From: an uncultured Ignavibacteriales bacterium
Lineage (GTDB): Bacteria; Zixibacteria; MSB-5A5; GN15; JAAZOE01
Length of the DNA: 64,000 nucleotides
Assembly: GCA_964611355.1 (NCBI GenBank)
Contig: CAZSYD010000009.1
Coordinates: 1 to 64,000, forward strand
Direction of reading: 5' to 3'
Both the position numbers and the translations under genes were made by a program. A model generated the notes under the pieces. The model searched no databases, had not been told where the DNA came from, and worked only from the letters and a program-made list of their open reading frames with translations. Shown piece after piece: positions 42,235 through 47,832 of this stretch (its first letter is position 1; each line of letters starts with the position of its first letter).

Positions 42235-44613
42235 ATGAAACTTCCCTGCAACTGGCTGAAAGAATTATCGGGACTGGACTGGCCACCTGACGAGATGGCG
42301 CAGAAACTGACCCGATCCGGCAGCGCCGCGGTTGTTGAAAAGCTGTCGCCGGACCACTTCAAAAACGTCGTCATCGGGCAAGTAATAAAACTGGAAAAAC
42401 ACCACAACGCCGACAAGTTGAAAGTGGCGGAGGTTGATACCGGCGACGCCGTGCACACGATTATCTGCGGGGCGCCAAACTGCGAAAAAGGCCAAAAAGT
42501 TGTGGTGGCTCTCCCCGGCGCAAAGTTGCGCGGCGAGTTTCGGGTAAGCGAAATAAATATGCGGGGCGTGAAATCGGCCGGGATGATTTGCGCCGAGGAC
42601 GAGTTGGGTCTTTCTGACGATCATTCGGGAATAATCGTCCTTGAAGATGACGCCCCCATTGGCCGGCCGGTTTACGAGTACATGGGACTTGATGACGCCG
42701 TTCTTAATTTTGAGATAACGCCGAACCGTCCCGACTGCCTTTGCGCTGTCGGAATCGCACGCGAATTAGCGGTTCTGGCGCAAAAGGATTTCAAGTTTGA
42801 CCCTGTCTTTCCGCCCGAAATTGAAGAAAAAGCGTCTGATCTGGTAAGCGTCGTCATTGATGATCCCAAGGCCTGCCCTCGGTACGCCGCCAGAGTTATT
42901 CAAAACGTCAAGATCGGCCCATCGCCATGGTGGTTGCGGAAACGGTTAACTGCCTGCGGGGTGCGCCCGATCAATAATATCGTTGACATTACAAATTACG
43001 TCATGCTGGAGACGAATCATCCGCTCCACGCCTTTGACTATGACCGTTTCGGTTCAAAAGAGATTATCGTCCGCCGCGCCGTGGAAGGCGAAAAGTTTAC
43101 CACTCTCGACGGGCAGGAACATACGCTCGATAACGCAGTCCTTCTTATTACAAACGGCAGGAAAGGCGTCGCTGCCGCCGGCGTCATGGGCGGCCTTGAA
43201 TCGGAAGTAACCGATACCACGACTACGGTGCTTCTTGAGGCAGCCTGTTTTAACCCATCCGTCATACGCAAGTCGGCCCGCAAACTGGGGACCGCTTCGG
43301 AATCGTCCTATCGGTTCGAGCGTGGCGTTGACCCCGACGGCGTGGTAAAAGCGGCCGACCTGGCGGCTGCCCTGATGGCTGAGCTGGCAGGCGGCAGGGT
43401 TCTGTCGGGCGTGGTTGACAACTACGCCCGGAAGATAGAACCGGTGCGGATTGAATTGCGACCCGAAAGGGTTAGAAAACTTCTTGGCCTTGATATTCAG
43501 GTGTCGTTCATGGAGGCGACTCTTCGCGGTTTGGGTTTGGATGTGGAATCAGGTTCGATCCTTAAGATCACGGCGCCGACTTTCCGCCCCGATATAACCC
43601 GTGAAATCGACCTGATCGAGGAAATTGCCCGGATTTACGGCCTCGATAATATACCCGTTACTCGACGCAATGCGGGACCGTTATTTACGCCAACGCACCG
43701 GCGTGATACGATTAAAGACGAAATCCGCAACATTGTGACCGGGCTTGGCTTTGAAGAAACTCTCGGCAGCGGCCTTGCTCATCCTGATCGAATGATTAAA
43801 ATCGATAACACGATTGAACCTGTCAGGATATTGAATCCTCTATCCGATGAGTTCGCGGTGATGCGTTCGCGGATGCTCTATTCGCTGTTATTGTCGGCCG
43901 GCAATAATATCCGCCACCGCAATATGGATGTGAAGATTTTTGAGATCGGGCGGGTATATTTAAGAGAAAATTCCGGTTATGGTGAGCCCGAATATTTTGG
44001 ATGCCTGGTAACCGGCCGGCGGGAAGATACCTATTGGAAAGCCAAACCGGAGGAAAACGACCTGTTTGAAATTAAGGGCGCGATTGCCGCCATGACGGAT
44101 AGTCTGGGTTTGGGTATGATATCGCTTGAGCCGGCGGTTAAACCGGGATATGATCCCGATCAGTCGTACGAAATAGTCGCAGGCGATGGAATCCTTGGTC
44201 AGATCGGATGCGTGGATCGAAATATTTGCCGAATGTTTGATATCAAGCAGGATTGCTTCGCCGCCGAGTTGAAACTGGATATGCTCATCAAGCTGCACCG
44301 GGGGATTCAGCCGTTTCGCCCGTTGCCGAAATACCCCGCCTCCGGCCGTGATATTGCGGTTGTGGTTGACAACGACGTTCCCGCGGCGAAATTACTGGAG
44401 GAAATCACCACAACGGGAGGAGATATGGTCGAATCGGTCGAGATATTCGACCTGTTTGCAGGTGATCCGGTGCCGGAAGGGAAAAAGTCGCTGGCTTTTT
44501 CAGTCAGCTACAGATCGGCGGATAAGACACTGGAGGATGTGGAAGTTGACCGAGTCCATAACCGTATCGTGGCCCATTTGAAAGAGAAGTATAAAGCCCG
44601 TCTAAGGGAGTAG
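42235..44613 (+). CDS. pheT: phenylalanine--tRNA ligase beta subunit
   Basis: CGAPN, TPNRPDCL, INNIVDITNY, RFERGVD, DLIEEIARIYG. Confidence 0.97.
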   Translation: MKLPCNWLKELSGLDWPPDEMAQKLTRSGSAAVVEKLSPDHFKNVVIGQVIKLEKHHNADKLKVAEVDTGDAVHTIICGAPNCEKGQKVVVALPGAKLRGEFRVSEINMRGVKSAGMICAEDELGLSDDHSGIIVLEDDAPIGRPVYEYMGLDDAVLNFEITPNRPDCLCAVGIARELAVLAQKDFKFDPVFPPEIEEKASDLVSVVIDDPKACPRYAARVIQNVKIGPSPWWLRKRLTACGVRPINNIVDITNYVMLETNHPLHAFDYDRFGSKEIIVRRAVEGEKFTTLDGQEHTLDNAVLLITNGRKGVAAAGVMGGLESEVTDTTTTVLLEAACFNPSVIRKSARKLGTASESSYRFERGVDPDGVVKAADLAAALMAELAGGRVLSGVVDNYARKIEPVRIELRPERVRKLLGLDIQVSFMEATLRGLGLDVESGSILKITAPTFRPDITREIDLIEEIARIYGLDNIPVTRRNAGPLFTPTHRRDTIKDEIRNIVTGLGFEETLGSGLAHPDRMIKIDNTIEPVRILNPLSDEFAVMRSRMLYSLLLSAGNNIRHRNMDVKIFEIGRVYLRENSGYGEPEYFGCLVTGRREDTYWKAKPEENDLFEIKGAIAAMTDSLGLGMISLEPAVKPGYDPDQSYEIVAGDGILGQIGCVDRNICRMFDIKQDCFAAELKLDMLIKLHRGIQPFRPLPKYPASGRDIAVVVDNDVPAAKLLEEITTTGGDMVESVEIFDLFAGDPVPEGKKSLAFSVSYRSADKTLEDVEVDRVHNRIVAHLKEKYKARLRE

Positions 44614-44617
44614 CGTT

Positions 44618-44884
44618 ATGAATACGGATTCGTTATCCAGACTTGAAGAACGAATTAACAAAGCTATTGCGCACATAGAAAGACTTACCGAGAAAAACCA
44701 TCGACTTGAAACCGAAAACAGGGAATTGAAAGAAAAGATAGAGAGATTTAAGAAGGAACTGAAGAGCAAAGGCGAGACCCTGAATCGTATAGAGGATAAA
44801 TCAACTCGGGTCTCAGAAGGAGTCAGGGATAAAATTGAAAGGCTTCTGGATAAAATCGACAATTACGACAAAAGCAGCCTTTAA
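44618..44884 (+). CDS. zapB: cell division protein ZapB-like coiled coil
   Basis: LEERINKAI..IERL heptad pattern; conserved pheT-zapB-zapA synteny. Confidence 0.7.
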   Translation: MNTDSLSRLEERINKAIAHIERLTEKNHRLETENRELKEKIERFKKELKSKGETLNRIEDKSTRVSEGVRDKIERLLDKIDNYDKSSL

Positions 44885-44892
44885 ATTTTTAC

Positions 44893-44922
44893 TTGACAAG
44901 GCTATGAAACTGAGCCTATATT
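44893..44922 (+). promoter_or_regulatory. sigma70 promoter of zapA-rny
   Basis: TTGACA-N18-TATATT. Confidence 0.65.
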
Positions 44923-44993
44923 ATTAAGTCATTGAAGGAGAGAGGGTTAATAAAAGACGAAAAGGGCCCGGCCGCCAAAGGCCTGTTTTTGAA

Positions 44994-45296
44994 ATGGAAT
45001 CGTTAAAAAGCAAAGTGCGTGTTAATATATATGGCGAAGAATATGCCCTCCGTTCGGAAGGTGACGTGGAGTATATTCGCGAAGTAGCCGGATTTGTCGA
45101 TCACAAAATGCGCGATATGGCTGAAAGAACTTCGAATAAATCGCCATCCCGTGTGGCTATCCTGGCCGCCCTTAATATCGCCGACGAGTTGTTGACCGAA
45201 AGAAAAAAGGGCGACAGCAAACTTTCAACGGTAGAGAAGCGCGCCAACGATATCATTTCCATGCTGGATACGAAACTGGCCGAAACGGTCGAATAA
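44994..45296 (+). CDS. zapA: cell division protein ZapA
   Basis: VNIYGEEY, VDHKM, AILAALNIADEL. Confidence 0.93.
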   Translation: MESLKSKVRVNIYGEEYALRSEGDVEYIREVAGFVDHKMRDMAERTSNKSPSRVAILAALNIADELLTERKKGDSKLSTVEKRANDIISMLDTKLAETVE

Positions 45297-45394
45297 CCGC
45301 CCGATTGGGGACGATTGATTTCCCCCGTCTTTCATTCGTTTTTCTCTCCTCAGCCTTAATATAGATTGCTCTGTCAACAAGAAGGAGCAGACCC

Positions 45395-46960
45395 ATGGAA
45401 ACATCAGTTTTGGTTATCCTGATTATTGTTATAGCCGTTGTAATATCCTTTTCTCTGGCCTGGTACCTTTCGCGGCGAATAGGCAGCCGGAAGCTGGCCA
45501 ATGCGGAAGAAACTGCCAGAAAGATTATCAAGGAAGGAGAAAAGGAAGCCAGAATAAGGAAGAAAGAGGCTGTTCTCGAAGCCAGGGACGAATGGTATAA
45601 AGCCAAACTCGATTTTGAAAGGGAAATTCAAGGCAAAAAAGCGGAACAGACCAAAATCGAAAGAAGGCTGGCCGACAGGGAACTGGACCTGAATCGAAAG
45701 GCCGAATTGATCGGCGATCAGGAAAGAAAACTGTCTGATCGCGATAAGCGGATGTCCGCCCGGGAAAAAGGTATAGGCCAACGCGAGCAGGAATTAGACC
45801 GGCTTATTGGCGAGCAGAACGTAAAGCTGGAGCAGATATCCGGGATGTCGACCGAGGAAGCCAGGCAATTACTCATGGAAAATATAGCCGGCAAAGCTCG
45901 TATGGAAGCTGTGGCCCTCGCCAGGGATATAAAGGATAAGGCGGAACGGGAGGCTGAAAAGGAAGCCAAAGAAATTATCATTCAGGCCATTCAGCGTTGC
46001 GCCGCGGACAATACTGTTGAGTCGACCGTCTCCGTGGTTAATCTGCCCAATGATGAAATGAAGGGACGTATTATCGGCCGCGAGGGACGCAATATCCGTT
46101 CCCTCGAGACTGCAACCGGTATTGATGTTATCGTCGATGATACCCCGGAAGCCGTCATCCTGTCGGGATACGACCCCGTTCGGCGAGAGATAGCCCGCAT
46201 GGCTCTGGAGAAGCTGGTGGCCGATGGCCGTATCCACCCAACCCGCATTGAGGAAGTGGTAGCCAAGGCGGAAAAAGACATGGAGGCTATTATCCGGGAG
46301 ACAGGCGAGCAGGCCGCCTTTGAAATCGGTATCCACAGTCTTCGCCCCGAAGTAATCAATCTCCTGGGCAAGCTGAAATACCGTACCAGTTACGGTCAGA
46401 ATGTGCTCAATCATTCCCGCGAAGTGGCGGTGCTTGCTGGCATAATGGCGTCGGAACTGGGTCTCGATGCGATGACCGCCAAGCGGGCCGGCTTGCTGCA
46501 TGATATCGGCAAGGCGGTCGACCGTCAGACGGAAGGTACCCACACCCAGATCGGAGCGGAATTGCTGCGGAAGTATAACGAGAACCCAATCGTTATCAAT
46601 GCCGTTGAGTCGCACCATGGCGACGTGCCGACTAATACGCCTTATTCGGTTCTTATCCAGGCCGCCGATGCTATCTCCGGATCGCGTCCCGGGGCCCGTC
46701 GTGAACCGCTGGAAAGTTATATTAAAAGGCTGGAAACACTGGAGGAACTGGCCGACAGCTTCAAGGGCGTTTCCAAGGCTTATGCCATCCAGGCCGGGCG
46801 CGAAGTTCGTGTTATCGTGGAATGCGACCAGATGGATGATTTGGCTTCGTCTGTTCTGGCGACCGATATAGCCGAAAAGATCGAGAAGGAAATGGAGTAT
46901 CCGGGCCAGATAAAGGTAACCGTGATTCGTGAACTACGGTCTGTGGAGTACGCCAAATAA
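45395..46960 (+). CDS. rny: ribonuclease Y
   Basis: N-terminal TM, coiled coil, KH domain ([13 protein letters not shown]), HD domain (GLLHDIGK), [12 protein letters not shown]. Confidence 0.97.
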
Positions 46961-47832
46961 TGGGGCAGTTTAAGGTATTGTTCATCGCCGACGTTGTCGG
47001 CAAACCGGGGCGATATATCCTCTCCCATATGGCCCGCCGACTGAAATACAAATATAGGGCTGATCTCGTCATTGCCAACACCGAAAACGCTGCCGGGGGA
47101 TTTGGTATTACGCCCGAGATGGCCAGCAAAGTTTTTGCCTATGGAGTTGATTGCCAGACCTCCGGCAATCATGTTTGGGATCGAATCGATATCATTGAAC
47201 TTTTCGGGAATGATCCGCGCCTTATTCGCCCGGCCAACTACCCCGACGGCGTCCCCGGACGCGGATATTATATCGCCCAGGCAGGCGAATACAAGATCGC
47301 GATTATTTCACTGATGGGCCGGACATATATGTATAATATCGATTGTCCGTTCAGAACCGCCGATCGTATTCTGGAAAACCTGGATGACGCCAATATTATT
47401 ATTGTTGATATGCACGCCGAAGCGACCTCGGAAAAACAGGCCATGGCATACTACCTCGACGGACGTGTAACGGCCGTCATCGGTACCCACACTCACGTCC
47501 AGACCGCCGACGAACAGATTTCCGAAAAGGGAACAGCCTATATTACAGATGCCGGAATGACCGGAGCTTTTGATTCCATTATCGGTATGAAAAAGAAACA
47601 TGCGCTTGGACGGTTTCTAACGGGTATGCCGAAAAGACTTGCCGTGGCGGAAGATGACGTGCGGATTTCCGGTGCGATAATCATCGCCGATCCGGAAGAT
47701 CGCGGCCGGGCCGTTTCGATTGAGAGGTTTTGTTTACCGATTGATTTGTCAATGCCAATAAAGGATCCGGAGGAGGAGACTACCGATGCAGGGAAAGCTG
47801 ATAGACGGCAAGGCGATAGCGAGGGAGATTAA
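46960..47832 (+). CDS. YmdB-family metallophosphoesterase
   Basis: DVVGKPG, ENAAGG, SGNHVWD, DMHAEATSEK, GTHTHVQT. Confidence 0.93.
   Translation: MGQFKVLFIADVVGKPGRYILSHMARRLKYKYRADLVIANTENAAGGFGITPEMASKVFAYGVDCQTSGNHVWDRIDIIELFGNDPRLIRPANYPDGVPGRGYYIAQAGEYKIAIISLMGRTYMYNIDCPFRTADRILENLDDANIIIVDMHAEATSEKQAMAYYLDGRVTAVIGTHTHVQTADEQISEKGTAYITDAGMTGAFDSIIGMKKKHALGRFLTGMPKRLAVAEDDVRISGAIIIADPEDRGRAVSIERFCLPIDLSMPIKDPEEETTDAGKADRRQGDSEGD

Follow-up and report, generated by a model that had tools for sequence, protein, structure and literature searches.

In a 64,000-nucleotide stretch of DNA from an uncultured bacterium, deposited as a member of the Ignavibacteriales and placed by GTDB in the Zixibacteria (assembly GCA_964611355.1, contig CAZSYD010000009.1, positions 1 to 64,000 of the forward strand; hereafter the window), the sequences on either side of the small gene zapA are complementary to each other. 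When paired as RNA, they would form a long-range helix that encloses the whole zapA open reading frame (ORF), with one strand at the start of the predicted transcript and the other in the spacer that leads into rny, the gene for RNase Y. This complementarity is conserved among Zixibacteria, its two sides co-vary in a partner-specific manner, and in four families the downstream strand overlaps an intrinsic terminator. We consider it very probable that the helix is a real feature, maintained by selection. The best explanation that we can offer for its role is an action on rny expression, a proposal that we hold tentatively and a little below even.

In the window, the helix and its immediate surroundings comprise the following parts.

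44933 to 44959, + strand: 5' arm TGAAGGAGAGAGGGTTAATAAAAGACG, purine-rich, about 3-5 nt after the predicted transcript start, paired with 45326-45352 in the minimum free energy (MFE) fold.
44970 to 44983, + strand: local leader hairpin GGCC-gccaaa-GGCC, present in the MFE fold.
45307 to 45325, + strand: local hairpin GGGGA-N9-TCCCC, just inside the 3' arm, present in the MFE fold.
45326 to 45352, + strand: 3' arm CGTCTTTCATTCGTTTTTCTCTCCTCA, pyrimidine-rich, paired with the 5' arm in the MFE fold.
45361 to 45366, + strand: ATAGAT motif, between the helix and the rny hairpin.
45367 to 45389, + strand: hairpin UGCUCU...GGAGCA around the Shine-Dalgarno (SD) sequence of rny, present in the MFE fold.

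An earlier, sequence-only reading had drawn this picture, and its description is accurate: the arms and local hairpins lie where it placed them, GAAGGAG occurs both in the 5' arm (44934) and as the rny SD (45381), TGCTCT begins at 45367, the gap between zapA and rny is 98 nt, and zapA of the window has no SD near its ATG, the 5' arm lying 35-61 nt upstream of that codon. Its central proposal, a helix enclosing zapA with its 3' strand in the rny leader, holds as well. The MFE structure of 44929-45394 contains both the long-range helix and a local hairpin in which, as that reading had suggested, UGCUCU covers the rny SD. Its interpretation as a whole is partly supported.

The stability of the complete fold of 44929-45394 is only mildly unusual (z -1.77; 3 of 100 shuffles are equally stable). 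The pairing of the arms stands out more clearly, with a co-fold gain of -22.7 kcal/mol in the window against -13.6 +/- 3.5 for dinucleotide-shuffled 3' regions (z -2.63), a value that 1 of 60 shuffles reaches. When fixed segments of 75 nt upstream and 80 nt downstream of genes are compared, the zapA flanks gain -24.1 kcal/mol, which is reached by none of 700 random genes from the same genome (mean -7.0, sd 3.6, minimum -21.2 kcal/mol). The energy thus lies beyond the background of purine and pyrimidine tracts that the sequence-only reading had named as the outcome that would undo its proposal. The co-fold contains 31 predicted inter-strand pairs, which are interrupted (the longest run is 11 bp), and takes the form of a helix followed by a large two-sided loop. 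These co-fold energies replace RNAduplex scores that we set aside, in which the window had z -2.20 with 3 of 100 mononucleotide shuffles reaching it, and in which L007, L009 and L014, among loci L001-L019, did no better than shuffles.

Strain variation is sparse. Contigs of four metagenome DNA runs hold 21 variable sites in 44880-45420, too few to test compensation. None falls in the 5' arm, and the only one in the 3' arm (45337 C>G) lies within a predicted internal loop. Two others fall in the GGGGA-N9-TCCCC hairpin, where 45310 G>A removes one pair, whereas 45322 C>T leaves a G-U pair.

For a comparison across the phylum, we assembled 89 loci from 19 Zixibacteria families (denoted here by f and a number), made up of the 30 best matches in relatives, 19 new best phylum-wide matches and 40 others that were picked to cover the remaining families, blind to the feature. 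In families f1 and f4, co-folds of leader and spacer hold 9-46 inter-strand base pairs in 30 of 30 loci, with 28-46 in most f4 loci, and often the entire leader zips to the entire spacer. The z values against dinucleotide shuffles are negative in all 30 (mean -2.4). Over the full set, 53 of 89 loci fall below the 5th percentile of the window's genome and 33 of 89 below its 1st, as compared with 17.3% and 7.4% of non-cognate pairs. About half of the f1 loci, but few of f4, have local hairpins inside the arms, and the leader hairpin at 44970-44983 is therefore not a conserved part of the element.

The arm sequences themselves vary by family, yet they remain complementary. They read GAAGAUAAUU and AAUUAUCUUC in f4; AAGAGAAUACAG with CUGUAUUCUCUU and CAGACCGGUUUGU with GCGAACCGGUCUG in f3; GAUUUUGGG and CCCAAAAUC in f5; UCAAGUUAAGUGG and CCACUUAACUUGA in f11; AGGUGGGGUUGGAAG and UUUUUAACCCCACUU in f12; and GCGGGCGCU and AGCGUCCGC in f14. 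In f9 the leader carries GGGAGGA and the 3' arm UCCUCC. The helix of f9 and f14 has just 6-9 bp, yet it is kept, about 10-15 nt from the rny SD.

Because MAFFT misaligns the 3' region, we measured co-variation in an alignment-free way, by co-folding each leader with each spacer. After removal of 11 of the 89 loci at >=85% identity, the remaining 78 gave a cognate mean of -14.8 kcal/mol against -8.7 +/- 0.37 for permuted partners, and 0/20000 permutations reached the cognate value. Swapping partners only within families (10 families, 64 loci) gave the same result, -15.3 against -11.9 +/- 0.42 (0/20000). The true partner ranked first in 21 of 78 loci and among the top three in 31, and the same answer was obtained with 25 of the first 30 loci, five near-duplicates having been removed. 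Thus the covariation in relatives that the sequence-only reading called for is present in this form.

Two loci outside the sampled Zixibacteria families were noted separately. A metagenome-assembled genome (MAG) titled Cytophagia (L040) has a perfect leader/gap complement, TTACTTGCCAA and TTGGCAAGTAA, and an unclassified MAG (L033) has a 13-bp leader/gap helix beside the ORF. In both, the overall co-fold gain is not above that of shuffles.

Several observations weigh against a selected RNA helix. RNAalifold, applied to 13 of the 16 f4 loci as aligned by MAFFT (near-duplicates L019, L023 and L029 left out), returned only the SD hairpin and not the long-range helix, which it missed because the 3' region was misaligned, as it was in the f1 alignment; bulges shift the register of the arms between genera. 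The signal is weak in f7, f9, f11, f15 and f19. The longest uninterrupted helix barely separates cognate from non-cognate partners (9.8 vs 8.6 bp), and the richness of the tracts in purines and pyrimidines lets even non-cognate partners pair at about -9 kcal/mol. The conservation statistics draw on related genomes, which are not independent samples. Finally, the asymmetry expected from G-U pairs is neutral (sense mean -14.9, antisense -14.5; 48 vs 41 loci; p 0.33), and in the window the antisense strand pairs more strongly than the sense strand, at -32.7 against -24.1.

Could the arms instead be an inverted repeat that acts as DNA, as a site of recombination or protein binding, or owe their pairing to chance between purine and pyrimidine tracts, with no RNA element at all? 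The near equality of in silico pairing on the two strands would be in keeping with such an explanation, and tracts of this kind are promiscuous: non-cognate partners average -8.7 kcal/mol, and long helices that contain G-U pairs are common by chance. Chance is nevertheless hard to reconcile with 700 background genes that all fall short of the window, or with complementarity that is partner-specific across 19 families. A repeat acting as DNA fits poorly with the form of the arms, whose pairing is broken by bulges and loops and includes 11% G-U pairs, unlike the repeats used by recombinases. Nor did contigs from the four DNA runs contain inversion joints, although contigs can miss rare forms; with imperfect arms and no joints, the locus does not resemble an inverton. 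Because G-U asymmetry is neutral, it is context that speaks for RNA of the sense strand. The 5' arm opens where a conserved promoter is predicted to start transcription, the 3' arm begins downstream of the stop codon, and in four families the 3' arm lies at the base of a sense-strand terminator with a U run. We therefore regard a DNA-level or chance origin as very unlikely.

The terminators deserve attention. In 10 loci, which belong to families f10, f11, f12 and f16, a strong intrinsic terminator (-29 to -46 kcal/mol, followed by a U run) separates zapA from rny. None of that strength occurs elsewhere among the 89 loci, including the window's family. In these loci the rny start follows the terminator by only 3-47 nt, so rny must there rely on read-through. 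The 3' arm forms the 5' base of the terminator stem in 10 of 10 cases (CCCCAC or CCACUUAA, for instance), and the leader has a copy of the stem's 3' base (GUGGGG or UUAAGUGG). In folds of the nascent RNA that end at the tip of the terminator hairpin, the leader pairs with 6-14 of the first 15 nucleotides of the stem in all 10 loci. As the 3' arm belongs to the terminator stem and the leader copies the other side of that stem, the modelled helix would serve in these families as a long-range antiterminator, with a partner about 400 nt upstream. We found no description of antitermination by so distant a partner in the literature searched, mostly not as full text.

The rny leader has other conserved features, a hairpin and a short motif. 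In f4, RNAalifold finds a counterpart of the window's SD hairpin, and 5 of its 6 pairs show changes on both sides. Of the 89 loci, 32 have ATAGAT between zapA and rny, whereas shuffling the gaps yields a mean of 2.0 and at most 7. Its distance to the rny start is nearly always 31-44 nt, and all 13 aligned f4 loci keep it unchanged. Within 0-3 nt it is followed by a hairpin that either contains the SD or borders on it. The motif also occurs in the zapA leader, near its 5' end, in 30 of 89 loci. Across the window's genome, the 40 nt ahead of start codons contain ATAGAT about twice as often as sequence further upstream does, and no excess of downstream folding accompanies the motif in that genome, so that it is not a general hairpin-linked motif there. 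We rejected ATAGAT as a -10 box as our main interpretation: the window has no -35 element at the right spacing, the genome-wide association with TTGACA is 2.6% as compared with 5.5% for TATATT, and a start 5-9 nt downstream would truncate the co-varying hairpin.

In Bacillus subtilis, RNase Y is described as preferring G|A where the RNA is AU-rich, unstructured and followed by a hairpin, which stabilises the product of the cut (PMC11780869, as far as the available part of that report goes). By analogy, the long-range helix and the SD hairpin may frame a cleavage site.

The genes and promoter around the helix are as follows.

+ strand of the window: pheS and pheT, on the same strand as the zapB-like gene, zapA, rny, the ymdB-like gene and folD.
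44618 to 44884, + strand: zapB-like gene, an ORF of 88 aa; Pfam ZapB, 43.8 bits against a cut-off of 31.5.
44893 to 44922, + strand: predicted sigma-70-type promoter TTGACA-18-TATATT, 11 of 12 matches, directly 3' of the zapB stop.
44994 to 45296, + strand: zapA ORF, 100 aa, inside the helix; Pfam ZapA, 72.6 bits.
45395 to 46960, + strand: rny (RNase Y), 521 aa; Pfam RNase_Y_N, 179.8 bits, with KH and HD domains.
3' of rny, + strand: ymdB-like gene; Pfam YmdB, 340 bits.
+ strand of the window, after the ymdB-like gene in the gene list: folD.

This arrangement is strongly conserved. ZapA was found in 59 of 61 genomes of relatives and, in a sample of 151 genomes from across the phylum, in 147, and rny is the direct same-strand 3' neighbour of zapA in 89 of 89 loci. 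A zapB-like gene lies upstream in 28 of the first 30 loci (tblastn with the window's ZapB-like protein), and in f1 and f4 all 30 loci have a TTGAC -35 element at the matching place after the zapB stop. Among named relatives of the window's RNase Y, the closest, at 76% identity, is in a MAG titled Candidatus Zixiibacteriota. The promoter match places the zapA transcript start at about 44929, right at the 5' arm. The gap between zapA and rny is 28-36 nt in f9 and f14, 47 nt in f19 and 59-184 nt elsewhere. Given the short gaps of f9 and f14, and since we found no terminator-like site on the + strand of the window, zapA and rny are probably co-transcribed from the promoter 3' of zapB. By eye, we also noticed a 24-codon frame that opens with TTG at the predicted transcript start (44932-45006), crosses the leader and overlaps the zapA start out of frame. 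The window's genome (96% complete) has genes for RNase III, RNase Y and a member of the RNase E/G family, and we found no C-terminal domain of RNase J in it.

These patterns can be drawn together in a model whose co-transcription, start site, cleavage events and direction of action on rny are all inferred. A single zapA-rny transcript would start at the promoter after zapB. Its 5' leader would pair across about 370 nt with the zapA-rny spacer, closing the zapA cistron as a panhandle and occupying the upstream part of the rny leader. The helix would then be a functional RNA element, and its state would decide what becomes of the rny part of the transcript. Where a terminator precedes rny, in four families, the helix would compete with that terminator and prevent it. 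In the window's family it most likely leaves AUAGAU single-stranded between the helix and the SD hairpin, where an endonuclease could split an end-paired zapA message from a hairpin-capped rny message; RNase Y, cutting at G|A, and RNase III, cutting within the helix, are the candidate enzymes. The helix would also keep the pyrimidine-rich 3' arm off the rny ribosome-binding site (RBS). Loss of the 5' leader would lower rny expression, with possible feedback on RNase Y.

Alternatively, the helix may be centred on zapA and have no role in rny. It would then pair the ends of the zapA message and protect it from nucleases that need a free 5' end or act on the 3' end, let RNase III excise zapA, in line with the processing stem that the sequence-only reading had also suggested, or tune zapA translation. 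This is possible, if on balance unlikely, and several features would suit it. The helix brackets the ORF exactly, from a few nucleotides after the predicted start to just past the stop codon. The 28-46 predicted pairs of most f4 loci suit RNase III, which is encoded, and a paired 5' end would matter in a cell that encodes RNase E/G-family and RNase Y enzymes. There are precedents in hbs of B. subtilis (PMC5737220) and icaR of Staphylococcus aureus (PMC3868564), as described in the available parts of those reports. The 3' arm and the rny RBS show no sign of co-evolution, and a GAGGA that lies 15-20 nt upstream of the zapA start in f4 falls within the inner helix. However, in the four terminator families, pairing with the leader would open the terminator stem and expose the zapA 3' end, the opposite of protection. 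The 6-9 bp of f9 and f14 are too few for RNase III, yet the helix is kept there close to the rny SD, and in the window zapA has no SD to hide.

If the helix acts on rny, does it do so by hiding an anti-SD? The sequence-only reading had proposed a switch of this kind for the window, in which cleavage or loss of the leader frees CUCCU in the 3' arm to block the rny SD, so that RNase Y would regulate its own translation. Part of this idea stands. The 3' arm can take more than one partner, as it is predicted to do in the four terminator families, and in the window's 3' segment folded alone the MFE structure pairs UCUCUCCU with the rny SD. GAAGGAG is common to the 5' arm and the SD, f9 combines UCCUCC with GGGAGGA, and the computed accessibility of the rny SD with the leader present is more than 0.05 higher in 54 of 89 loci and lower in 6. 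Moreover, anti-SD-like sequences can reach an RBS over hundreds of nucleotides in B. subtilis (PMC12697547), and RNase Y of that species autoregulates by another route (PMC10303841), according to what is available of both reports.

In the window itself, however, the switch is not borne out. The SD is predicted to be as accessible with the leader (0.31) as it is when the leader is left out (0.30), which also tells against the proposed action on rny. The UCUCUCCU-SD fold is a minor one (frequency 0.003), is lacking in the centroid and is no more stable than shuffles (z +0.82). We compared the pairing of 3' arms with rny RBSs after leaving out the four terminator families and gaps <70 nt (21 loci) and then 8 redundant loci, and it has no within-family partner specificity (7733/20000 permutations), again a point against the proposed action on rny. 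The window's 3' arm ranks 55th of 60 with its own RBS, with which it pairs worse than with 54 of 59 foreign ones. Furthermore, the SD already lies inside its own conserved local hairpin. A leader-gated anti-SD switch in the window is thus improbable. Any action on rny also faces a more general difficulty: the leader is always made first, so the helix should form by default, and nothing points to an input signal for a switch.

RNase Y starts most mRNA decay in many bacteria, and to our knowledge the setting of its level is understood only for B. subtilis. In Zixibacteria the helix might act as a long-range licence, such that only a transcript with an intact leader escapes termination (in the four families) or reaches a productive processed form (in the window's family), and the rate at which the cell's RNases remove the leader sets RNase Y output. 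On balance we find this doubtful. If true, it would describe an RNA-decay homeostat that works across a whole cistron, couples RNase Y to the cell-division gene zapA and has taken over a slot that holds 6S RNA in other phyla.

That slot calls for consideration of 6S RNA itself. In beta- and gamma-proteobacteria 6S RNA follows zapA (PMC7641849, in its available part). In a Calditrichia MAG (L091) we found a 6S RNA at 794-967 (RF00013, 52.4 bits against a gathering score of 46.4), exactly between zapA (484-774) and rny (from 1005). Judged from gene order, the Zixibacteria helix occupies the slot that 6S RNA holds elsewhere. The sequence-only reading had considered the gap in the window too short for 6S RNA, and our searches agree: there is no match to RF00013, even partial, at E <= 10 in 43500-47000, where no other relevant Rfam family matches either, none at the gathering score in the window, and none at E <= 1 in its genome. 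In the window's order, 0 of 41 genomes (its own and 40 relatives; 36 of them >=90% complete) match at E <= 0.01. The missing match is weak evidence, since in a control the model matches only 5 of 14 known genomes, and 6S RNA in this order may be either much diverged or missing.

It follows that the rod might itself be a 6S-like RNA that binds RNA polymerase and carries zapA in its tip. The regular 6S RNA at this exact place in the Calditrichia MAG and the absence of matches from the order would be in keeping with this, as would the sizes of the leader and the 3' region (about 65 and about 60 nt), which are near those of the two outer strands of a 6S rod, itself closed by 5'/3' pairing. The window's helix, like that of 6S RNA, leads into a large two-sided loop. 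Against this, a 6S rod spans about 180 nt with a large central bubble between helices, whereas the f4 rods are zipped almost continuously, with loops of only 1-3 nt, and the window's gap has 98 nt. Here one strand lies upstream of zapA, and the arms are skewed to purines and pyrimidines, unlike the 6S RNA of L091. We know of no precedent for an actively translated ORF inside a 6S RNA. In the light of the missing model match and the f4 rods without a central bubble, a 6S-like identity seems extremely unlikely. The helix nevertheless raises the question of the fate of 6S RNA in Zixibacteria, where the zapA-6S-rny slot is otherwise conserved.

In a MAG titled Omnitrophota, a 5-formyltetrahydrofolate cyclo-ligase gene (L042:255-806; Pfam, 160 bits) lies directly upstream of rny, and similar-looking ORFs, judged by eye only, are present in L051, L099 and L102. 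In proteobacteria, 6S RNA usually has this gene as its downstream neighbour. The order in L042 hints at an old zapB-zapA-6S-ygfA-rny-ymdB neighbourhood.

Looking beyond Zixibacteria, we found no paper on a zapA-rny element in the literature searched, mostly not as full text. Bacterial long-range helices that span a whole ORF and have comparative support in many families are rare, and such elements are invisible to motif finders that view one intergenic region at a time. The conservation of an RNA architecture before rny across a phylum gives a hypothesis that can be tested by mutation, in a lineage far from B. subtilis.

Several known systems resemble parts of this architecture. Terminator/antiterminator attenuators let one strand join either an upstream partner or a terminator stem before the regulated gene, and the strand shared between leader and terminator in f10, f11, f12 and f16 would face the same choice. 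In attenuators the competitor lies within one leader, whereas here it is a full cistron (about 400 nt) further upstream, there is no apparent sensing element, and the window's family lacks a terminator. In rRNA processing stalks, the flanks of a unit pair into a duplex that is cut to release it. Like those stalks and the long-range duplexes that RNase III cuts in B. subtilis (PMC11780869, in its available part), the flanks of zapA pair over more than 100 nt and could be cut to free the unit between them. The enclosed unit here is a protein-coding cistron, and the helix of f9 and f14 is too short for that enzyme.

Autoregulation of RNase Y in B. subtilis offers a parallel of another kind, in that enzyme level is tied to how the rny leader is structured. 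In that species decay starts with cleavage in the 5' untranslated region (UTR) and early ORF of rny, and the available part of the report describes no upstream cistron or long-range helix (PMC10303841).

The closest likeness is to pairing of the 5' UTR with the 3' UTR of one message. As in hbs and icaR, the leader and post-stop sequences of the window are complementary, here beyond the level seen in shuffles and in other genes, and in relatives of the window the pairing is kept by changes on both sides, overall and within families. In icaR the pairing targets the gene's own SD (PMC3868564, in its available part), unlike the window, where the 5' arm lies well upstream of a zapA without a nearby SD. 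In hbs of B. subtilis, where RNase Y is the main decay enzyme, a 14-bp pairing of its 5' UTR with its 3' UTR modulates RNase Y cleavage in the leader (PMC5737220). Both hbs and zapA are small ORFs (about 90-100 codons) bracketed by leader/post-stop pairing. The zapA helix is longer (about 25-45 predicted bp against 14), its 3' strand is the spacer before rny and not a terminal 3' UTR, and, unlike the hbs interaction as the available part of that report presents it, it is conserved across a phylum with co-variation. We conclude that the helix is a case of known long-range 5'/3' pairing, and that its new aspects are its phylum-wide occurrence, its span over a whole ORF, its position before rny and, in some families, its predicted use as an antiterminator.

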